From Escherichia coli (GTDB taxonomy: Bacteria; Pseudomonadota; Gammaproteobacteria; Enterobacterales; Enterobacteriaceae), in the NCBI RefSeq assembly GCF_024700885.2, contig NZ_CP117016.1: a stretch of 64,000 nucleotides of DNA; one strand, written 5' to 3'. Of this stretch, positions 39,077-63,108 are shown piece after piece (position 1 is the first letter of the stretch; each line of letters opens with the position of its first letter). The notes beneath the pieces were generated by a model that was not told where the DNA came from, searched no databases, and saw only the letters and a list, made by a program, of their open reading frames with translations. Both the position numbers and the translations under genes were made by a program.

Positions 39077-40903
39077 ATGCATTATATGAAGTGGATTTAT
39101 CCACGCCGCTTACGCAATCAAATGATCCTGATGGCAATCCTGATGGTCATTGTCCCAACGCTTACTATTGGTTATATCGTAGAAACGGAAGGACGTTCAG
39201 CAGTCTTATCTGAAAAAGAGAAAAAACTTTCTGCCGTGGTCAACCTGCTTAATCAGGCACTAGGCGATCGCTATGATCTCTACATCGACTTACCACGTGA
39301 GGAGCGTATCCGCGCATTAAATGCAGAACTTGCCCCCATTACCGAAAATATCACTCACGCCTTCCCTGGCATCGGCGCTGGTTATTACAACAAAACGCTG
39401 GATGCGATAATCACCTACGCGCCTTCAGCGCTATATCAGAATAATGTCGGCGTTACCATTGCCGCAGATCACCCTGGTCGCGAAGTCATGCGTACAAATA
39501 CCCCTTTGGTTTATTCAGGCAGGCAGGTGCGCGGCGATATTTTGAATTCAATGATCCCCATTGAGCGTAATGGTGAAATCCTCGGCTATATCTGGGCCAA
39601 TGAATTAACCGAAGATATTCGCCGCCAGGCCTGGAAAATGGATGTGAGGATTATCATTGTGCTCACCGCCGGTTTGCTGATAAGCCTGCTGTTGATTGTC
39701 CTTTTCTCCCGTCGCCTGAGCGCCAATATTGATATCATCACCGATGGCCTCTCGACTCTGGCGCAAAATATTCCCACTCGATTACCACAATTGCCCGGTG
39801 AAATGGGGCAAATCAGTCAGAGTGTTAACAACCTCGCCCAGGCACTGCGTGAAACGCGGACACTTAACGATCTGATTATTGAAAACGCTGCCGATGGCGT
39901 CATTGCCATTGACCGCCAGGGTGATGTAACCACCATGAACCCGGCAGCAGAAGTCATCACTGGCTATCAACGTCATGAACTGGTAGGGCAGCCTTACTCC
40001 ATGTTGTTCGACAATACTCAGTTCTACAGTCCAGTACTGGATACGCTGGAACATGGCACCGAACATGTAGCGCTGGAGATCAGTTTTCCAGGCCGTGACC
40101 GCACCATTGAACTCAGTGTCACTACCAGTCGTATTCATAACACGCATGGTGAAATGATAGGTGCTTTGGTGATTTTCTCTGATTTAACTGCCCGCAAAGA
40201 AACCCAGCGCCGCATGGCGCAAGCAGAACGCCTCGCCACACTGGGTGAGCTGATGGCTGGCGTCGCGCATGAAGTACGTAATCCGCTAACGGCTATTCGT
40301 GGTTATGTACAGATCTTGCGCCAACAAACCGGTGACCCAATACATCAGGAATATCTGTCCGTAGTACTCAAAGAAATCGATTCAATTAACAAAGTTATTC
40401 AGCAATTGCTCGAATTTTCACGTCCACGCCACAGTCAATGGCAACAAGTCAGCCTCAATGCATTGGTTGAAGAAACTCTGGTACTGGTACAAACCGCTGG
40501 CGTACAAGCGCGGATCGACTTCATAAGCGAACTGGATAATGAATTAAGCCCGATTAACGCCGATCGTGAACTGCTCAAACAGGTACTACTGAATATCCTG
40601 ATCAATGCCGTCCAGGCTATCAGTGCACGAGGGAAAATTCGCATTCGAACCTGGCAGTACAGCGACTCACAACAGGCCATTTCGATAGAGGACAACGGCT
40701 GTGGCATTGATCTCTCGCTGCAAAAAAAGATCTTCGATCCCTTTTTCACTACCAAAGCCTCAGGAACCGGGCTTGGTCTGGCGTTAAGTCAACGCATCAT
40801 TAATGCCCATCAGGGTGATATTCGCGTCGCCAGTTTGCCGGGCTACGGCGCAACCTTCACGCTTATTTTACCGATCAACCCGCAGGGAAATCAGACTGTA
40901 TGA
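39077..40903 (+). CDS. atoS: Sensor histidine kinase AtoS (608 aa)
   Basis: Start at MHYMKWIYPRRLRNQ (ATG 39077); PAS domain, H-box (AHEVRNPL), HATPase. Confidence 0.9.
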   Translation: MHYMKWIYPRRLRNQMILMAILMVIVPTLTIGYIVETEGRSAVLSEKEKKLSAVVNLLNQALGDRYDLYIDLPREERIRALNAELAPITENITHAFPGIGAGYYNKTLDAIITYAPSALYQNNVGVTIAADHPGREVMRTNTPLVYSGRQVRGDILNSMIPIERNGEILGYIWANELTEDIRRQAWKMDVRIIIVLTAGLLISLLLIVLFSRRLSANIDIITDGLSTLAQNIPTRLPQLPGEMGQISQSVNNLAQALRETRTLNDLIIENAADGVIAIDRQGDVTTMNPAAEVITGYQRHELVGQPYSMLFDNTQFYSPVLDTLEHGTEHVALEISFPGRDRTIELSVTTSRIHNTHGEMIGALVIFSDLTARKETQRRMAQAERLATLGELMAGVAHEVRNPLTAIRGYVQILRQQTGDPIHQEYLSVVLKEIDSINKVIQQLLEFSRPRHSQWQQVSLNALVEETLVLVQTAGVQARIDFISELDNELSPINADRELLKQVLLNILINAVQAISARGKIRIRTWQYSDSQQAISIEDNGCGIDLSLQKKIFDPFFTTKASGTGLGLALSQRIINAHQGDIRVASLPGYGATFTLILPINPQGNQTV

Positions 40904-42285
40904 CTGCTATTAATCGCATCCTTATTGTGGATGATGAAGATAATGTTCGCCGTATGCTGAGCACCGCTTTTGCACTACAAGGATTCGAAACACATTGTGC
41001 GAACAACGGGCGCACAGCATTACACCTGTTTGCCGATATTCACCCTGACGTGGTGTTGATGGATATCCGCATGCCAGAGATGGACGGCATCAAGACACTA
41101 AAGGAGATGCGCAGCCATGAGACACGGACACCCGTTATTCTGATGACGGCCTATGCTGAAGTGGAAACCGCCGTCGAAGCACTACGCTGCGGAGCCTTCG
41201 ACTATGTTATCAAACCGTTTGATCTCGATGAGTTGAATTTAATCGTTCAGCGCGCTTTACAACTCCAGTCAATGAAAAAAGAGATCCGTCATCTGCACCA
41301 GGCACTGAGCACCAGCTGGCAATGGGGGCACATTCTCACCAACAGCCCGGCGATGATGGACATCTGCAAAGACACCGCCAAAATTGCCCTTTCTCAGGCC
41401 AGCGTCTTGATTAGCGGTGAAAGCGGCACCGGGAAAGAGTTGATTGCCAGAGCGATTCACTACAATTCGCGGCGGGCAAAGGGGCCGTTCATTAAAGTCA
41501 ACTGCGCGGCGCTGCCGGAATCGTTGCTCGAAAGTGAACTGTTTGGTCATGAAAAAGGGGCATTTACTGGTGCACAAACCTTGCGTCAGGGATTATTTGA
41601 ACGTGCCAACGAAGGTACTCTGCTCCTCGACGAAATTGGCGAAATGCCGCTGGTACTGCAAGCCAAATTACTACGCATTCTGCAGGAACGGGAATTTGAA
41701 CGGATTGGCGGCCATCAGACCATAAAAGTTGATATCCGCATCATTGCTGCCACCAACCGCGACTTGCAGGCAATGGTGAAAGAAGGCACCTTCCGTGAAG
41801 ATCTCTTTTATCGCCTTAACGTTATTCATTTAATACTGCCGCCTCTGCGCGATCGCCGGGAAGATATTTCCCTGTTAGCTAATCACTTTTTGCAAAAATT
41901 CAGTAGTGAGAATCAGCGCGATATTATCGACATCGATCCGATGGCAATGTCACTGCTTACCGCCTGGTCATGGCCGGGAAATATTCGAGAGCTTTCCAAC
42001 GTTATTGAACGCGCCGTCGTGATGAATTCAGGCCCGATCATTTTTTCTGAGGATCTTCCGCCGCAGATTCGTCAGCCAGTCTGTAATGCTGGCGAGGTAA
42101 AAACATCCCCTGTCGGAGAGCGTAATTTAAAAGAGGAAATTAAACGCGTCGAAAAACGCATCATTATGGAAGTGCTGGAACAACAAGAAGGAAACCGAAC
42201 CCGCACTGCTTTAATGCTGGGCATCAGTCGCCGTGCATTGATGTATAAACTCCAGGAATACGGTATCGATCCGGCGGATGTATAA
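40900..42285 (+). CDS. atoC: Sigma54-dependent response regulator AtoC (461 aa)
   Basis: Receiver domain, AAA+ domain with GESGTGKE and GAFTGA motif, C-terminal HTH. Confidence 0.93.
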   Translation: MTAINRILIVDDEDNVRRMLSTAFALQGFETHCANNGRTALHLFADIHPDVVLMDIRMPEMDGIKTLKEMRSHETRTPVILMTAYAEVETAVEALRCGAFDYVIKPFDLDELNLIVQRALQLQSMKKEIRHLHQALSTSWQWGHILTNSPAMMDICKDTAKIALSQASVLISGESGTGKELIARAIHYNSRRAKGPFIKVNCAALPESLLESELFGHEKGAFTGAQTLRQGLFERANEGTLLLDEIGEMPLVLQAKLLRILQEREFERIGGHQTIKVDIRIIAATNRDLQAMVKEGTFREDLFYRLNVIHLILPPLRDRREDISLLANHFLQKFSSENQRDIIDIDPMAMSLLTAWSWPGNIRELSNVIERAVVMNSGPIIFSEDLPPQIRQPVCNAGEVKTSPVGERNLKEEIKRVEKRIIMEVLEQQEGNRTRTALMLGISRRALMYKLQEYGIDPADV

Positions 42286-42296
42286 CGCCAAAACTT

Positions 42297-42337
42297 GCTA
42301 TGCAGAAATTTGCACAGTGCGCAATTTTCTGCATAGC
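42297..42337. promoter_or_regulatory. AtoC-binding inverted repeat upstream of atoDAEB
   Basis: Near-perfect 41-bp palindrome gctatgcagaaatttgcacagtgcgcaattttctgcatagc. Confidence 0.8.
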
Positions 42338-42419
42338 CGCTCATTCTCCTTATAAATCCCCATCCAATTTATCCCTTCATATTCAATTAGTTAAATAACA
42401 ACATTCAATAATCTCATTC

Positions 42420-42434
42420 TGGCACTCCCCTTGC
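42420..42434 (+). promoter_or_regulatory. Sigma54 (-24/-12) promoter of atoDAEB
   Basis: TGGCAC-N5-TTGC matching the RpoN consensus, ~50 bp upstream of the atoD ATG. Confidence 0.8.
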
Positions 42435-42480
42435 TATTCCCTGACTGTACCCACAACGGTGTATGCAAGAGGGATAAAAA

Positions 42481-43143
42481 ATGAAAACAAAATTGATGAC
42501 ATTACAAGACGCCACCGGCTTCTTTCGTGACGGCATGACCATCATGGTGGGCGGATTTATGGGGATTGGCACTCCATCCCGCCTGGTTGAAGCATTACTG
42601 GAATCTGGTGTTCGCGACCTGACATTGATAGCCAATGATACCGCGTTTGTTGATACTGGCATCGGTCCGCTCATCGTCAATGGTCGAGTCCGCAAAGTGA
42701 TTGCTTCACATATCGGCACCAACCCGGAAACAGGTCGGCGCATGATATCTGGTGAGATGGACGTCGTTCTGGTGCCGCAAGGTACGCTAATCGAGCAAAT
42801 TCGCTGTGGTGGAGCTGGACTTGGTGGTTTTCTCACCCCAACGGGTGTCGGCACCGTCGTAGAGGAAGGCAAACAGACACTGACACTCGACGGTAAAACC
42901 TGGCTGCTCGAACGCCCACTGCGCGCCGACCTGGCGCTAATTCGCGCTCATCGTTGCGACACACTTGGCAACCTGACCTATCACCTTAGCGCCCGCAACT
43001 TTAACCCCCTGATAGCCCTTGCGGCTGATATCACGCTGGTAGAGCCAGATGAACTGGTCGAAACCGGCGAGCTGCAACCTGACCATATTGTCACCCCTGG
43101 TGCCGTTATCGACCACATCATCGTTTCACAGGAGAGCAAATAA
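42481..43143 (+). CDS. atoD: Acetate CoA-transferase alpha subunit AtoD (220 aa)
   Basis: Recognised CoA-transferase subunit A sequence; operon position. Confidence 0.92.
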
Positions 43144-43793
43144 TGGATGCGAAACAACGTATTGCGCGCCGTGTGGCGCAAGAGCTTCGTGATGGTGACA
43201 TCGTTAACTTAGGGATCGGTTTACCCACAATGGTCGCCAATTATTTACCGGAGGGTATTCATATCACTCTGCAATCGGAAAACGGCTTCCTCGGTTTAGG
43301 CCCGGTCACGACAGCGCATCCAGATCTGGTGAACGCTGGCGGGCAACCGTGCGGTGTTTTACCCGGTGCAGCCATGTTTGATAGCGCCATGTCATTTGCG
43401 CTAATCCGCGGCGGTCATATTGATGCCTGCGTGCTCGGCGGTTTGCAAGTAGACGAAGAAGCAAACCTCGCGAACTGGGTAGTGCCTGGGAAAATGGTGC
43501 CCGGTATGGGTGGCGCGATGGATCTGGTGACCGGGTCGCGCAAAGTGATCATCGCCATGGAACATTGTGCCAAAGATGGTTCAGCAAAAATTTTGCGCCG
43601 CTGCACCATGCCACTCACTGCGCAACATGCGGTGCATATGCTGGTTACTGAACTGGCTGTCTTTCGTTTTATTGACGGCAAAATGTGGCTCACCGAAATT
43701 GCCGACGGGTGTGATTTAGCCACCGTGCGTGCCAAAACCGAAGCTCGGTTTGAAGTCGCCGCCGATCTGAATACGCAACGGGGTGATTTATGA
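43143..43793 (+). CDS. atoA: Acetate CoA-transferase beta subunit AtoA (216 aa)
   Basis: CoA-transferase subunit B; overlapping start with atoD stop. Confidence 0.92.
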   Translation: MDAKQRIARRVAQELRDGDIVNLGIGLPTMVANYLPEGIHITLQSENGFLGLGPVTTAHPDLVNAGGQPCGVLPGAAMFDSAMSFALIRGGHIDACVLGGLQVDEEANLANWVVPGKMVPGMGGAMDLVTGSRKVIIAMEHCAKDGSAKILRRCTMPLTAQHAVHMLVTELAVFRFIDGKMWLTEIADGCDLATVRAKTEARFEVAADLNTQRGDL

Positions 43794-45112
43794 TTGGTCG
43801 CATATCGCGTTTTATGACGCGTTTTGTCAGCCGGTGGCTTCCCGATCCACTGATCTTTGCCATGTTGCTGACATTGCTAACTTTCGTGATCGCGCTTTGG
43901 TTAACACCACAAACGCCGATCAGCATGGTGAAAATGTGGGGTGACGGTTTCTGGAACTTGCTGGCGTTTGGTATGCAGATGGCGCTTATCATCGTTACCG
44001 GTCATGCCCTTGCCAGCTCTGCTCCGGTAAAAAGTTTGCTGCGTACTGCCGCCTCCGCCGCAAAGACGCCCGTACAGGGCGTCATGCTGGTTACTTTCTT
44101 CGGTTCAGTCGCTTGTGTCATCAACTGGGGATTTGGTTTGGTTGTCGGCGCAATGTTTGCCCGTGAAGTCGCCCGCCGAGTACCCGGTTCTGATTATCCG
44201 TTGCTCATTGCCTGCGCCTACATTGGTTTTCTCACCTGGGGTGGCGGTTTCTCTGGCTCAATGCCTCTGTTGGCTGCAACACCGGGCAACCCGGTTGAGC
44301 ATATCGCCGGGCTGATCCCGGTGGGCGATACTCTGTTCAGTGGTTTTAACATTTTCATCACTGTGGCGTTGATTGTGGTGATGCCATTTATCACCCGCAT
44401 GATGATGCCAAAACCGTCTGACGTGGTGAGTATCGATCCGAAACTACTCATGGAAGAGGCTGATTTCCAAAAGCAGCTACCGAAAGATGCCCCACCATCC
44501 GAGCGACTGGAAGAAAGCCGCATTCTGACGTTGATCATCGGCGCACTCGGTATCGCTTACCTTGCGATGTACTTCAGCGAACATGGCTTCAACATCACCA
44601 TCAATACCGTCAACCTGATGTTTATGATTGCGGGTCTGCTGCTACATAAAACGCCAATGGCTTATATGCGTGCTATCAGCGCGGCAGCACGCAGTACTGC
44701 CGGTATTCTAGTGCAATTCCCCTTCTACGCTGGGATCCAACTGATGATGGAGCATTCCGGTCTGGGCGGACTCATTACCGAATTCTTCATCAATGTTGCG
44801 AACAAAGACACCTTCCCGGTAATGACCTTTTTTAGTTCTGCACTGATTAACTTCGCCGTTCCGTCTGGCGGCGGTCACTGGGTTATTCAGGGACCTTTCG
44901 TGATACCCGCAGCCCAGGCGCTGGGCGCTGATCTTGGTAAATCGGTAATGGCGATCGCCTACGGCGAGCAATGGATGAACATGGCACAACCATTCTGGGC
45001 GCTGCCAGCACTGGCAATCGCCGGACTCGGTGTCCGCGACATCATGGGCTATTGCATCACTGCCCTGCTCTTCTCCGGCGTCATTTTCGTCATTGGTTTA
45101 ACGCTGTTCTGA
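43790..45112 (+). CDS. atoE: Short-chain fatty acid transporter AtoE (440 aa)
   Basis: Polytopic membrane protein; operon position. Confidence 0.9.
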   Translation: MIGRISRFMTRFVSRWLPDPLIFAMLLTLLTFVIALWLTPQTPISMVKMWGDGFWNLLAFGMQMALIIVTGHALASSAPVKSLLRTAASAAKTPVQGVMLVTFFGSVACVINWGFGLVVGAMFAREVARRVPGSDYPLLIACAYIGFLTWGGGFSGSMPLLAATPGNPVEHIAGLIPVGDTLFSGFNIFITVALIVVMPFITRMMMPKPSDVVSIDPKLLMEEADFQKQLPKDAPPSERLEESRILTLIIGALGIAYLAMYFSEHGFNITINTVNLMFMIAGLLLHKTPMAYMRAISAAARSTAGILVQFPFYAGIQLMMEHSGLGGLITEFFINVANKDTFPVMTFFSSALINFAVPSGGGHWVIQGPFVIPAAQALGADLGKSVMAIAYGEQWMNMAQPFWALPALAIAGLGVRDIMGYCITALLFSGVIFVIGLTLF

Positions 45113-45142: not shown

Positions 45143-46327
45143 ATGAAAAATTGTGTCATCGTCAGTGCGGTACGTACTGCTATCGGTAGTTTTAACGGTT
45201 CACTCGCTTCCACCAGCGCCATCGACCTGGGGGCGACAGTAATTAAAGCCGCCATTGAACGTGCAAAAATCGATTCACTACACATTGATGAAGTGATTAT
45301 GGGTAACGTGTTGCAAGCCGGGTTGGGGCAAAATCCGGCACGTCAGGCACTGTTAAAAAGCGGGCTGGCAGAAACGGTGTGCGGATTCACGGTCAATAAA
45401 GTGTGTGGTTCGGGTCTTAAAAGTGTGGCGCTTGCCGCCCAGGCAATTCAGGCAGGTCAGGCGCAAAGCATTGTGGCGGGGGGTATGGAAAATATGAGTT
45501 TAGCGCCCTACTTACTCGATGCAAAAGCACGCTCTGGTTATCGTCTTGGAGACGGACAGGTTTATGACGTAATCCTGCGCGATGGTCTGATGTGCGCCAC
45601 CCATGGTTATCATATGGGGATTACCGCCGAGAACGTGGCCAAAGAGTACGGAATTACCCGAGAAATGCAGGATGAACTGGCGCTACATTCACAGCGTAAA
45701 GCGGCAGCCGCAATTGAGTCCGGTGCTTTTACAGCCGAAATCGTCCCGGTAAATGTTGTCACTCGGAAGAAAACCTTCGTCTTCAGTCAAGACGAATTCC
45801 CGAAAGCGGATTCTACGACTGAAGCGTTAGGCGCATTGCGCCCGGCCTTCGATAAAGCAGGAACAGTCACCGCCGGGAACGCGTCTGGTATTAACGACGG
45901 TGCTGCCGCTCTGGTGATTATGGAAGAATCTGCGGCGCTGGCAGCAGGCCTTACCCCCCTGGCTCGCATTAAAAGTTATGCCAGCGGTGGCGTGCCCCCC
46001 GCATTGATGGGTATGGGGCCAGTACCTGCCACGCAAAAAGCGTTACAACTGGCGGGGCTGCAACTGGCGGATATTGATCTCATTGAGGCTAATGAAGCAT
46101 TTGCTGCACAGTTCCTTGCCGTTGGGAAAACCCTGGGCTTTGATTCTGAGAAAGTGAATGTCAACGGCGGGGCCATCGCGCTCGGGCATCCTATCGGTGC
46201 CAGTGGTGCTCGTATTCTGGTCACACTATTACATGCCATGCAGGCACGCGATAAAACGCTGGGGCTGGCAACACTGTGCATTGGTGGCGGCCAGGGAATT
46301 GCGATGGTGATTGAACGGTTGAATTAA
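45143..46327 (+). CDS. atoB: Acetyl-CoA acetyltransferase (thiolase II) AtoB (394 aa)
   Basis: Thiolase motifs (VNKVCGSG active Cys, C-terminal [12 protein letters not shown]). Confidence 0.93.
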
Positions 46328-46407
46328 CAAATCAGAACCACTCGCATGGCGGGTGGTTATCTGTTTCAGCCACGATGCGCCAGAAACAGACTAAAGTCAG
46401 AAAAGTA

Positions 46408-46431
46408 AAGGGCCGAATTTTCGGCCCTTTT
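46408..46431. terminator. Bidirectional rho-independent terminator between convergent atoB and gyrA
   Basis: AAAGGGCCGA-attt-TCGGCCCTTT hairpin flanked by A/T runs on both sides. Confidence 0.85.
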
Positions 46432-46438
46432 AACTTGA

Positions 46439-49075
46439 TTACTCGTCAGCGTCGTCTGCGACATCATCGTCGCTTTCCACTTCCGGAGCGATTTCATCGT
46501 CCCCTTCCGCGGCACTGCCATCGATGGTATCCAGATCTTCCTCGTCAACCGGTTCAGCAACACGTTGCAGACCCACTACGTTTTCATCTTCCGCAGTACG
46601 GATGAGGATCACGCCCTGGGTGTTACGACCTACGATGCTGATTTCCGAAACGCGAGTACGTACCAGCGTACCGGCATCAGTGATCATCATGATCTGGTCG
46701 CAGTCATCTACCTGCACCGCGCCAACCACTAAACCGTTACGTTCGGTAACCTTGATGGAGATAACCCCTTTCGTCGCACGCGACTTAGTCGGGTATTCCG
46801 CCACTGCGGTACGTTTACCATAACCGTTCTGCGTTGCGGTGAGGATTGCGCCATCGCCACGAGGCACGATCAGAGAGACGACTTTATCGCCTTCACCTAA
46901 GCGAATACCGCGAACACCGGTGGTGTTGCAGCCCATCGCACGGACAGAAGACTCTTTAAAGCGCACCACTTTACCTTCGGCGGAGAACAGCATTACTTCA
47001 TCTTCGCCGCTGGTCAGGTCAACGCCGATCAGCTCATCGCCTTCAACCAGTTTGATCGCCACTTTACCGGCGGTACGCAGACGGTTGAATTCGGTGAGGA
47101 CGGTTTTCTTAACAGTACCGTTAGCGGTCGCCATGAAGACTTTCACGCCTTCTTCAAACTCGGTCACCGGCAGGATCGCGGTGATACGTTCGTCCTGCTC
47201 CAGCGGCAGCAGGTTGACAATCGGACGACCGCGCGCGCCACGAGTGGCTTCCGGCAACTGATAGACTTTCATCGAATAGACGCGACCACGGCTGGAGAAG
47301 CACAGAATATGGTCGTGGGTGTTCGCCACCAGCAGTCGGTCAATAAAGTCTTCTTCTTTAATACGTGCGGCAGATTTGCCTTTCCCGCCACGACGCTGCG
47401 CTTCGTATTCAGAAAGCGGCTGATACTTCACGTAGCCCTGGTGAGAGAGCGTCACAACCACATCTTCCTGAGTGATCAGATCTTCCAGGTTGATGTCTGC
47501 GCTGTTGGCGGTGATTTCAGTGCGACGTTTGTCACCGAACTGTTCACGAACCAGTTCCAGCTCTTCGCGGATCACTTCCATCAGACGATCGGCACTGCCA
47601 AGAATACGCAGCAGTTCTGCGATCTGATCCAGCAGCTCTTTATATTCGTCGAGCAGTTTTTCGTGCTCAAGGCCGGTCAGTTTCTGCAAACGCAGATCCA
47701 GAATCGCCTGGGCTTGCTGTTCGGTCAGGTAGTACAGACCGTCACGCACGCCGAACTCTGGCTCCAGCCATTCCGGACGCGCAGCATCATCGCCCGCACG
47801 TTCGAGCATGGCGGCAACGTTGCCCAACTGCCACGGATTAGCAACCAGCGCAGTTTTCGCTTCTGCAGGCGTCGGCGCATGACGGATCAGTTCGATGATC
47901 GGGTCGATGTTCGCCAGCGCCACGGCTAATGCTTCAAGGATATGAGCACGATCGCGAGCTTTACGCAGTTCGAAAATAGTACGACGGGTCACCACTTCAC
48001 GGCGGTGACGAACAAACGCCGCGATGATGTCTTTCAGGTTCATGATCTTCGGCTGACCATGGTGCAATGCCACCATGTTGATACCGAAAGAAACCTGCAA
48101 CTGGGTCTGGGAGTAGAGGTTGTTAAGCACAACTTCACCGACCGCATCGCGTTTCACTTCAATCACGATGCGCATACCGTCTTTGTCAGACTCGTCACGC
48201 AGCGCGCTGATGCCTTCCACGCGTTTTTCTTTTACCAGTTCCGCAATCTTCTCGATCAGGCGCGCTTTGTTCACCTGATACGGAATTTCGTGGACGATAA
48301 TGGTTTCACGTCCGGTTTTGGCGTCAACTTCCACTTCAGCACGGGCGCGGATATATACCTTGCCGCGACCGGTACGGTAAGCTTCTTCAATACCGCGACG
48401 ACCATTAATGATTGCCGCCGTCGGGAAGTCCGGCCCAGGAATGTGTTCCATCAGCCCTTCAATGCTGATGTCTTCATCATCGATATACGCCAGACAACCG
48501 TTGATGACTTCCGTCAGGTTGTGCGGCGGGATGTTGGTTGCCATACCTACGGCGATACCGGAAGAACCGTTCACCAGCAGGTTAGGAATTTTGGTTGGCA
48601 TGACGTCGGGAATTTTTTCCGTGCCGTCATAGTTATCAACGAAATCGACCGTCTCTTTTTCGAGATCGGCCATCAGTTCATGGGCAATTTTCGCCAGACG
48701 GATTTCCGTATAACGCATTGCCGCCGCAGAGTCGCCGTCGATGGAACCGAAGTTACCCTGACCGTCTACCAGCATGTAACGCAGCGAGAATGGCTGCGCC
48801 ATACGGACGATCGTGTCATAAACCGCCAAGTCACCATGGGGATGGTATTTACCGATTACGTCACCAACGACACGGGCAGATTTTTTATAGGCTTTGTTCC
48901 AGTCATTGCCTAGTACGTTCATGGCGTAAAGTACGCGACGGTGTACCGGCTTCAGGCCATCTCGGACATCTGGCAGCGCACGGCCAACAATGACCGACAT
49001 CGCATAATCCAGATAGGAGCTCTTCAGCTCTTCCTCAATGTTGACCGGTGTAATTTCTCTCGCAAGGTCGCTCAT
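46439..49075 (-). CDS. gyrA: DNA gyrase subunit A (878 aa as encoded), carrying S83L
   Basis: [19 protein letters not shown]-terminus, active-site region, acidic C-terminal tail; codon 83 reads TTG (Leu), codon 87 GAC (Asp). Confidence 0.95.
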
Positions 49076-61358: not shown

Positions 61359-61513
61359 TGTAAGACATGAGATTGATGACAAATGCAAGACTGCCTGATT
61401 CGCCACACTTAGTTGTACTATAGCCTTTACCAGGCGTAATAATTCGTTTTCACCTGATTTTGGCCCACTTTGTGAATTGGCGATATATATTTATCCAGTT
61501 GGGAGAAGTGACA

Positions 61514-61645
61514 ATGACTCCAGGTAGAAATCGGTATGAAGCGCCCGACTCACTGTCAAAACCGATCGTTGAGAGTAATGACACTCCGGCGAACAGTACA
61601 CAGTTTACTCTGGAGCCATTCTCAATCTTCAAGTGGGATACCTAG
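61514..61645 (+). CDS. Candidate small protein (43 aa), unknown function
   Basis: ATG at 61514 preceded by GGGAGAAG 7 nt upstream; MTPGRNRYEAPDSLSKPIVESNDTPANSTQFTLEPFSIFKWDT; no homolog recognised. Confidence 0.4.
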   Translation: MTPGRNRYEAPDSLSKPIVESNDTPANSTQFTLEPFSIFKWDT

Positions 61646-61823
61646 TAACTTTTCAGGGAAGTTATCAATATCTGTTTGTTACTTATTACCGTATTTATTA
61701 ACAATAATGATACTTTCTACCATGCGTAAAGGTCTTCGTAATAAAATGAGCTAAATTTGATAGTGAATATATTTTGCAAAGATTAGATTGTATCTTGTTA
61801 ACTCACAATACAAGGAATCATTT

Positions 61824-62894
61824 ATGCCAAATACATCTATTCACTTATCTCGCTGTAATATTTTACAAAATAATAAATTGCAACCAGCAGAAATTTACAA
61901 AGAATCACAACAAACCGCGAAACTTGAGTTTTTTTGCGATGAGTTTCTAAAAATATCTCAAAGTAGATACGGGTTATCAACTTCAGCAGACAGCATAGCT
62001 AATTTATTGGCTTTTTTCACGAAAGCCTCAGATGCAATTGATAGTATCAAGACCCAAAAAATTGACGTTCACAGTTATGGTTTCGTACCAATAAGACATT
62101 TTGTCGAACATGTCATAACGTATAAAAATGAATTTGCAGCGGATTATGAACCCTATACCCTTACCTTTACCCGAGGTGAAAACAACGAAGGTATTTTGAG
62201 TGTCGAAAGCAAAGAAGGGTTTATTTCACAAAGAACAATAAACTTAAATGAATATGAAACTGCAATTAACATCATCAATGAACATGTTATAAAAGAAAAT
62301 ATCCACAACACGGTCCAGTCACCGACAGAAAAAGACATTTCAAAAATAAACAGCTCTGATAAACCTTATAAAACCAGCAGTGAGGAAAGTATTAAAAGTC
62401 AACTTTACAGCGATCAAAAAAAATATACAGACCTGCTACTACATTCTGAGAAAAATACAGAATGGTACAAATACGCATCCTCCGTGGAACGCTATGATAA
62501 ATTCAAGAATTCTTCTAAGGAAATTAAAAATACCTACAAGCAAATTGTACAAGCGCAGAAAAAATTGAACCAAATGAAATACATCAATAAATTAAGTGGT
62601 GAGCTTATCGATATCGCCGACAAAAAGTTAGCACCATTAATAAATGATAGTTTCAGCTATACACGAGATTTCTTTGCTTACTCAAAACAGGAAAATAACA
62701 TCTTCACGTTTGATAATTCTAAGTTTGAAGATCCAAAGGAAAAAAAAGGTTTAATGGTACAACACAGCAATGGACAACTGGTTATTACTGGTGAATATTA
62801 TCCTGAAGGTGTGCAAATAGCATTCACTCAAGAACAATATAATAAATTAATAAGATACATTAATATTTTCTTTACTTTCCCGAAATGCGAATAA
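61824..62894 (+). CDS. Hypothetical protein (356 aa) in an AT-rich islet; no recognisable domain, no signal peptide or TM segment
   Basis: Long ORF (track 61788-62894); preferred start ATG 61824 with AAGGA SD 8 nt upstream; ~30% GC and Lys/Asn/Ser/Glu-rich composition unlike the flanking core genes. Confidence 0.65.
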   Translation: MPNTSIHLSRCNILQNNKLQPAEIYKESQQTAKLEFFCDEFLKISQSRYGLSTSADSIANLLAFFTKASDAIDSIKTQKIDVHSYGFVPIRHFVEHVITYKNEFAADYEPYTLTFTRGENNEGILSVESKEGFISQRTINLNEYETAINIINEHVIKENIHNTVQSPTEKDISKINSSDKPYKTSSEESIKSQLYSDQKKYTDLLLHSEKNTEWYKYASSVERYDKFKNSSKEIKNTYKQIVQAQKKLNQMKYINKLSGELIDIADKKLAPLINDSFSYTRDFFAYSKQENNIFTFDNSKFEDPKEKKGLMVQHSNGQLVITGEYYPEGVQIAFTQEQYNKLIRYINIFFTFPKCE

Positions 62895-63079
62895 TACTTT
62901 ACAGTATAAACTGCAATACAATTTATTATTGAACCCAATTCATACTGTTTAAGGAATAACAATGCCCAGTGTTAGCTTTCTTAACGAATGAGTTTTACGC
63001 AAATATGTTGGCATCTTTTTTAACAGGATGCACCGGTTAATGAATAGAACAACCGGAAGTAGCATTATTTCGCTTTAGC

Positions 63080-63108
63080 AGAGGATGGCGCATGAACGCC
63101 ATCCTGCA
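63080..63108. terminator. Hairpin terminator downstream of glpQ, possibly bidirectional
   Basis: AGGATGGCG-catgaa-CGCCATCCT stem-loop between the hypothetical CDS and the glpQ stop. Confidence 0.7.

Follow-up and report, generated by a model that had tools for sequence, protein, structure and literature searches.

Organization of the atoB-gyrA junction

In the window, as we call the whole stretch of 64,000 nucleotides of Escherichia coli DNA that was analysed, the open reading frame list places the end of a 394-aa reading frame at position 46327 on the + strand and the end of an 878-aa reading frame at position 46439 on the - strand, leaving a spacer of 111 bp (46328-46438) between them. The first of these is atoB, encoding acetyl-CoA acetyltransferase (45143-46327, + strand), which was assigned through thiolase family models and RefSeq annotation. 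The second is gyrA (46439-49075, - strand), assigned through RefSeq annotation and TIGR01063, for which the GyrA reading frame gave a full-length match of 1307.9 bits against a curated cutoff of 877. Both are intact, full-length and convergent. The remaining genes of the ato module, atoS, atoC, atoD, atoA and atoE, lie on the + strand at 39077-45112 in the interval from rcsC to gyrA; they were placed using the open reading frames and the converted RefSeq annotation of strain MLI114, and AtoE matches TIGR00366. Gene names throughout are taken from the annotation of MLI114, which matched the window at 100% identity in all segments compared.

The initial annotation had noted that atoB directly abuts gyrA here and that K-12 carries the yfa cluster between the two genes, and both observations were borne out, as MG1655 has yfaP, yfaQ, yfaS (a pseudogene), yfaT and yfaA at this position. 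A literature search that included the yfa gene names found no paper on this locus polymorphism or on the allele. Within the coding sequence, GyrA of the window carries S83L relative to K-12 (codon 83, window 48827-48829), a classic quinolone-resistance (QRDR) substitution, together with a wild type D87; D678E is a second difference from K-12.

Breakpoints and the two gyrA ends

Alignment with K-12 showed that homology ends exactly after the TAA of atoB, making the stop codon of this gene the left breakpoint of the polymorphism, and restarts at ~46476, 37 nt inside gyrA. The intervening allele-specific core of 148 nt (46328-46475, no strand assigned) consists of the 111-bp spacer and the last 37 nt of gyrA, and in these alignments nothing in the K-12 locus matched it, nor was a K-12-type counterpart present. 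The allele-specific gyrA 3' end (46439-46475, - strand), delimited by the same alignments, encodes an acidic-tail end of the ancestral Enterobacteriaceae type. Because this boundary falls inside an essential gene, the two allele states encode different GyrA C-termini: the protein has 878 aa in the window and 875 aa in K-12, where it ends in DVDDEPEEE (PEVDVDDEPEEE, then stop). A clean boundary at the spacer, as implied earlier, is thus not what the alignments show, given that the polymorphism reaches 37 nt into gyrA, to 46475, and alters the C-terminus of the protein.

K-12 has two spacers at this locus, one of 73 bp between atoB and yfaP and one of 148 bp between yfaA and gyrA, and the window spacer resembles neither. 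The best local alignment of the window spacer to the K-12 flanks was no better than chance, as 937 of 2,000 shuffles scored at least as high, and alignments to the K-type flanks revealed no yfa or K-type remnant in the window junction. A likeness noticed by eye between the hairpin of the K-12 atoB-yfaP spacer and the first hairpin of the window spacer was rejected, as it scored 14 where shuffles averaged 13.6. The difference between the two states is one of replacement, with 148 nt in the window standing against ~9.5 kb in K-12, each with its own gyrA end.

Distribution among complete E. coli genomes

The population sample comprised 5,426 complete E. coli genomes, 5,425 of which had a gyrA match. 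The window-type 148-nt core was present in 26 of the 5,426 (~0.5%) and was 100% identical in all of them. The K-12-type core, defined as the gyrA end with its downstream spacer, was present in 5,399 genomes and never more than once per genome. The sum of 26 and 5,399 is 5,425 and accounts for all genomes that have a gyrA match, so the two alleles are mutually exclusive and form a clean, exhaustive dimorphism. DNA of the yfa cluster was detected in 5,398 genomes and was missing from 28; by count, with 28 genomes lacking a match and 26 carriers of the window-type core, the carriers are without the yfa cluster anywhere in the genome.

Among the carriers, 24 of 26 belong to a single clone, which counts O166:H15 strains among its members and shows 100% identity across 14 kb; its next relatives are at 98.4%. 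The remaining two, 19KM1831 and N3, are not among the next relatives of this clone, so the allele is found in at least three non-sister lineages. Strain 19KM1831 has an A to P change in the GyrA tail (DDEIPPEV vs DDEIAPEV), which constitutes another natural acidic-tail variant.

Predicted terminators in the spacer

The spacer had been described as containing one bidirectional terminator hairpin, and folding instead identified three, with whole-spacer folding z-scores of about -5.5 and -5.3 on the two strands. Hairpin 1 (46336-46358, + strand) has a 10-bp stem followed by ATCTGTTTCA and is terminator-like for atoB. Hairpin 2 (46360-46390, + strand), identified by folding, has a perfect 8-bp stem, TCTGTTTC/GAAACAGA, with a 15-nt interior. 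Hairpin 3 (46407-46430, no strand assigned), identified by folding and by a terminator scan, is the perfect palindrome AAAGGGCCGAA/TTCGGCCCTTT. The scan flagged hairpin 3 as a terminator on the - strand, and TTTT follows the stem on the + strand; its GC-rich stem-loop, with an A-run on one side and a T-run on the other, has the sequence makeup of a bidirectional intrinsic terminator. Hairpin 3 is plausibly the gyrA terminator, with predicted activity in both directions, and the spacer as a whole would serve as a predicted terminator block for two convergent genes, hairpin 1 acting for atoB and hairpin 3 for gyrA. Rfam searches of the spacer yielded only sub-threshold matches, which lay over the gyrA 3' end (PrrB_RsmZ at 19 bits vs a threshold of 44 and STnc70 at 18 vs 40).

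Cross-genus comparison identified hairpin 3 as the ortholog of a single hairpin shared by Citrobacter and Atlantibacter. The AAAGGGCCG..CGGCCCTT hairpin is common to the window, to a divergent Escherichia genome (L008, introduced below), to Citrobacter and to Atlantibacter, the hairpin sequences being AAAGGGCCGAATTTTCGGCCCTTT in the window, AAAGGGCCGGATTTCTCCGGCCCTT in Citrobacter and AAAGGGCCGGATTATCCGGCCCTT in Atlantibacter. Its structure is kept across species even where its sequence varies: the Citrobacter hairpin (AAAGGGCCGGA..TCCGGCCCTT) has one extra G:C pair compared to the window and the loop is altered in L008, and the stem is a perfect palindrome in every case.

A dispersed 75-nt module next to atoB

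The left part of the spacer, holding hairpins 1 and 2, is a two-hairpin dispersed module of 75 nt (46329-46403, + strand) bounded by the imperfect 9-mers AAATCAGAA and AAGTCAGAA. Copies with 79-87% identity were found in 23 other E. coli genomes, in phage Chlobot (85% identity) and in 13 IMG/VR contigs, with at most one copy per genome among the complete E. coli genomes. Searches of plasmids and phages with the spacer yielded matches to the module alone, including a weaker one (77% across 62 nt) on a plasmid of E. albertii. The module had no Rfam family match. Its existence overturns the earlier statement that the junction holds no scar or repeat, at least for these 75 nt. The accompanying statement that there is no IS remnant was upheld: neither terminal inverted repeats nor a locus-specific target duplication were found at the module, which is therefore not the scar of an IS or MITE. 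Since related 9-mers occur in the copies at other loci, AAATCAGAA and AAGTCAGAA belong to the module itself and are not a target duplication.

Wherever an upstream open reading frame was called, the copies begin within ~12 nt of the stop of this + strand reading frame. These upstream cargo reading frames are unrelated to one another, encoding either a 239-aa glycosyltransferase-like protein or a 76-aa membrane protein, and the copies that follow them face a convergent phage gene. The exception is one copy residing inside a degraded 'HTH' pseudogene of an O-antigen cluster. In our collection of extracted loci, the module recurs at L098-L110, L090:2501-2586, L007:4001-4071 and L005:4001-4086. 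Judged from its sequence and placement, the simplest reading of the module is that of a portable terminator cassette for 3' ends. It is missing from the Citrobacter spacers and present in L008, where it is 92% identical, and this distribution makes it a lineage-specific addition to an ancestral junction, so that the site in the window is not pristine.

Gene order and GyrA ends in outgroups

Outgroups were scanned with the GyrA C-terminus as query, using one genome per species, and at least 80 loci were returned; the loci listed are without Salmonella, E. fergusonii, E. marmotae and E. ruysiae, and the Salmonella tails used for comparison were taken from protein fragments. Among the matches listed, nine of nine ato-bearing outgroup genomes (five Citrobacter, Atlantibacter, Entomohabitans, strain LSJC7 and a MAG) have atoB abutting gyrA convergently across a spacer of 42-85 bp. 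For genera without ato, again among the matches listed, the histidine-kinase gene downstream of gyrA is probably rcsC. The junctions of Citrobacter and Atlantibacter are like that of the window in gene order, in orientation, in the orthologous GC-rich palindromic terminator near gyrA and in the type of GyrA ending. They differ in the spacer, which is 42-48 bp with one hairpin in Atlantibacter and in four of the five Citrobacter and 84 bp in Citrobacter sp. R56. The window spacer reaches 111 bp, vs 42-48 bp in these outgroups, because the 75-nt two-hairpin module lies between atoB and hairpin 3.

The GyrA ending of the window, or a near variant of it, is the commonest among the ~80 Enterobacterales genomes listed, and in the matches listed the window type was found in Kluyvera, Pseudocitrobacter, Trabulsiella, Enterobacter and Cedecea. 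The last 12 GyrA residues of the window are those of Salmonella enterica and S. bongori, and at the DNA level the gyrA tail can be aligned with Citrobacter and Atlantibacter. Among the loci listed or examined, DVDDEPEEE followed by a stop occurs only in Escherichia with yfaA directly downstream of gyrA, namely K-12, O157:H7, Escherichia sp. MOD1-EC7003 and E. albertii.

Together, the outgroup gene order, the orthologous hairpin and the Enterobacteriaceae-type GyrA tail identify the architecture of the window as ancestral. An ancestral empty site was one of the two origins offered in the initial annotation, and it gains support here from at least nine outgroups with the same junction, from the orthologous gyrA-proximal hairpin and from a GyrA tail that is Enterobacteriaceae-wide. 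Taking this together with what is directly observed, namely where the breakpoints lie, that the two alleles exclude each other and how the locus is arranged in outgroups, we consider it very probable that the window carries a never-occupied allele of ancestral type in the rcsC-gyrA interval, and that the K-12-type allele stems from an old insertion of yfaA-T-S-Q-P downstream of gyrA. The ancestral allele would then have comprised the ato operon, a short terminator spacer and gyrA with its original 3' end. This reading would fix both the polarity and the breakpoints of the yfa (type II alpha-2-macroglobulin) cluster, as an insertion into an ancestral atoB-terminator-gyrA junction. Presence/absence polymorphism of a known accessory cluster is in itself routine in E. 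coli genomics and an ordinary feature.

The yfa cassette and the history of the rcsC-gyrA interval

Under this reading, the yfa insertion would have replaced 148 bp, consisting of the spacer and the last 12 gyrA codons, by ~9.5 kb that supplied a new 9-codon gyrA end. The Pfam content of the cassette is DUF2138, MagC, A2M and DUF2300. In the nearest non-Escherichia relatives, the same five-gene cassette follows uvrC-pgsA in one genome and cysJIH in another. Such placement at unrelated sites in other genera is what a cassette that moves horizontally would be expected to show. A donor for the K-type tail, in which yfaA would already have been next to gyrA, was sought by searching the 176 nt specific to the K type, and the atoB-yfaP spacer of 73 nt, against the ~80 listed outgroup loci and the yfa loci of other genera, which yielded no convincing match, the one hit being 14 nt long (E ≈ 0.3). 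With regard to the mechanism of the yfa insertion, neither target duplications nor an integrase were found at the locus.

Three main configurations of the rcsC-gyrA interval occur in E. coli: ato+yfa, as in K-12 (roughly 3,900 genomes, an estimate); yfa-only, as in O157:H7 and E300010 (roughly 1,500 complete genomes, also an estimate); and ato-only, represented by the 26 carriers. In yfa-only genomes the sequence between rcsC and atoS is still in place, together with ~70 nt left over from the 5' end of atoS (78% identity, E = 2e-10); the retained stretch lies at L089:4274-4547 in O157:H7 and at L096:10472-10745 in E300010. Because of this remnant, the yfa-only configuration is traced to an ato-containing ancestor that lost ato by deletion. 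The order of events would accordingly run from ato-only to ato+yfa by insertion and then to yfa-only by a later deletion of ato. The interval between rcsC and gyrA is in this sense made up of two independent modules, ato and yfa.

Age of the allele and alternative explanations

The K-type gyrA end of E. albertii differs by one base, and both alleles are old. The empty allele was also detected in a genome labelled 'E. coli' SCPM-O-B-8794 (L008, NZ_JAATUR010000019.1), with an identical E-type gyrA end and a spacer that is ~90% identical. This genome is ~10% diverged in the ato genes and ~5% in gyrA, and is probably a cryptic Escherichia lineage; despite its label, it is its own species representative in the collection. 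As a lineage ~10% diverged in ato carries the empty allele, that allele must itself be old. E. albertii already has the insertion, and continuous retention of the empty allele within E. coli would therefore require either a very long-lived polymorphism or a re-introduction from other Escherichia. The rarity of the empty allele (~0.5%) likewise counts against our reading, as does the 75-nt module, which the Citrobacter spacers lack. The allele is ancestral in type whether it was retained or re-introduced.

Exchange at the locus is illustrated by E300010, a clone-mate of the window strain. From position 1 to 18 kb of the window it shows at most 2 differences per kb, and beyond 18 kb, continuing past 64 kb, it diverges in a mosaic fashion by 0 to 5.5% per kb; its rcsC-gyrA interval is of the yfa-only kind. 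This combination of a mosaic tract and a yfa-only state indicates that the module can be swapped on long homologous tracts. With regard to the direction of the recombination, the E300010 version has one close match, the sister lineage AST215 is 98.4% from E300010, and the region is mosaic generally. The mosaic part of E300010 (L096/L097) corresponds to window ~18000-64000 and covers nap, eco, mqo, ompC, rcs, gyrA, yfaL and nrd; separately, E300010 has IS1397 between yfaL and ubiG and is without window 61368-63081. According to our proposal, the ancestral allele would survive in ~0.5% of E. coli, having moved between lineages on long homologous-recombination tracts.

The strongest alternative, which refines the never-occupied ancestral allele without contradicting it, is that the empty allele was re-introduced fairly recently from a never-inserted divergent Escherichia by homologous recombination and then spread among E. 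coli; we give this scenario slightly less than an even chance. The 148-nt core is invariant in 26 of 26 carriers, while divergence in the sequence adjoining it reaches 5% per 200 nt; an invariant core with divergent flanks suggests a single recent source within E. coli. The presence of the allele in at least three non-sister lineages favours the scenario as well, as do the insertion already present in E. albertii and in a cryptic-clade genome, the empty allele in L008, and a mosaic tract across the locus, at least 46 kb long, that sets clone-mates apart. The spacer of L008, however, is only ~90% identical, so that L008 is not the donor, and no foreign tract is visible beside the junction. In addition, the body of gyrA groups by lineage and not by allele, that of the window falling with ordinary E. 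coli (18-30 differences per 861 nt to K-type E. coli, compared to 48 to L008).

Import of the ato operon and the gyrA-proximal junction from another genus, with a Citrobacter- or Salmonella-like donor, would explain why the last 12 GyrA residues are as in Salmonella and why the terminator resembles that of Citrobacter, but we regard it as highly unlikely. The gyrA sequence just inside the breakpoint, and atoB, are ~98-99.6% identical to ordinary E. coli. The tail DNA is only 87-88% identical to Citrobacter, which is an ordinary between-genus distance, and Citrobacter AtoB is 82-87% identical at the protein level. The allele in L008, moreover, diverges in step with its Escherichia lineage. A non-Escherichia atoB-spacer-gyrA 3' sequence more than 97% identical to the window was looked for among the 80 loci listed, and none came close.

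A deletion of yfa, precise or imprecise, from a K-12-type ancestor is more improbable still, even though nearly all E. coli have the K-12-type allele and loss of the cluster by deletion does happen. The precise deletion raised in the initial annotation is rejected, as the spacer is unlike both K-12 flanks and the gyrA 3' end is different; no deletion can recreate a gyrA tail and terminator matching those of Salmonella and Citrobacter. Two real deletions of the locus were found, and neither resembles the window. That of strain 06-00048 (L002) runs from within yfaP to within yfaA, leaves partial genes and keeps both K-type spacers; that of KFu022 (L111) runs from inside atoE to inside yfaA and leaves a truncated atoE and a 114-nt yfaA stub. 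Both retain the 875-aa K-type gyrA. These two deletions are independent of one another, and the interval is prone to rearrangement. Finally, a collapsed or misjoined contig, named at the outset as an outcome that would undo the observation, can be put aside with near certainty, as the same junction recurs in 26 complete genomes obtained independently, by different laboratories and from different hosts and countries, and both gyrA and atoB are intact full-length reading frames.

The GyrA acidic tail

Species-specific chromosomal supercoil levels have been reported to be largely set by the C-terminal residues of GyrA, 35 in E. coli and 38 in Salmonella, of which 19 and 20, respectively, are acidic; transfer of the 35 E. 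coli residues to Salmonella GyrA is reported to cure sickness in E. coli (Rovinskiy et al. 2019, PMC6463007). Our count for K-12 likewise gives 35 aa with 19 acidic residues. The tail of the window has 38 aa with 20 acidic residues and is identical to that of Salmonella at 31 of 38 positions, including the last 12. It is therefore like the Salmonella 'rheostat' tail (PMC6463007) in length, in acidic count and in its last 12 residues, and differs from it in that the first 26 residues are the E. coli version. The carriers thus combine, in nature, an E. coli background with a GyrA tail whose sequence is part E. coli and part Salmonella-like.

These features raise the tentative, and on balance doubtful, proposition that the yfa insertion created the difference in GyrA end between E. 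coli (875 aa) and Salmonella (878 aa), and that strains with the ancestral tail may have a more Salmonella-like supercoiling set point. If true, there would be a natural within-species polymorphism in the gyrase 'rheostat'. The canonical E. coli ending DVDDEPEEE is tied to the yfa insertion, and the Salmonella-type ending is carried by 0.5% of E. coli. Because the chimera data assign the supercoil difference largely to the last 35-38 residues (PMC6463007), the carriers are ready-made natural variants for dissection of the tail. This link to the GyrA tail gives the polymorphism modest extra interest. On the practical side, carriers will be mis-handled by tools built around an E. coli GyrA of 875 aa and by those that take the 3' end of gyrA, or the region downstream, as a marker.

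Comparison with known systems

The cluster that distinguishes the two alleles is the yfaS/mag operon of the type II bacterial alpha-2-macroglobulin, MagA-F (Zouhir et al. 2018, PMC5764988). This operon occupies the site in 99.5% of E. coli and is absent from the window.

The placement of the 75-nt module can be compared with phage genomes, where terminators flanking 'moron' cargo genes are an established concept. The likeness lies in the position of the module directly after the stops of unrelated cargo reading frames that face convergent phage genes, just as atoB faces gyrA. The window module differs in that it resides in a chromosomal metabolic operon, not in a prophage, and it is a predicted terminator.

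With regard to empty-site alleles of E. coli, the present case differs in that the boundary lies inside an essential gene, that 148 bp are replaced and no target is duplicated, and that no integrase, tRNA or IS is involved here. It is like them in having two states at one conserved position, with the minority state collinear with outgroups, and in the exchange of the state between lineages via flanking homologous recombination.
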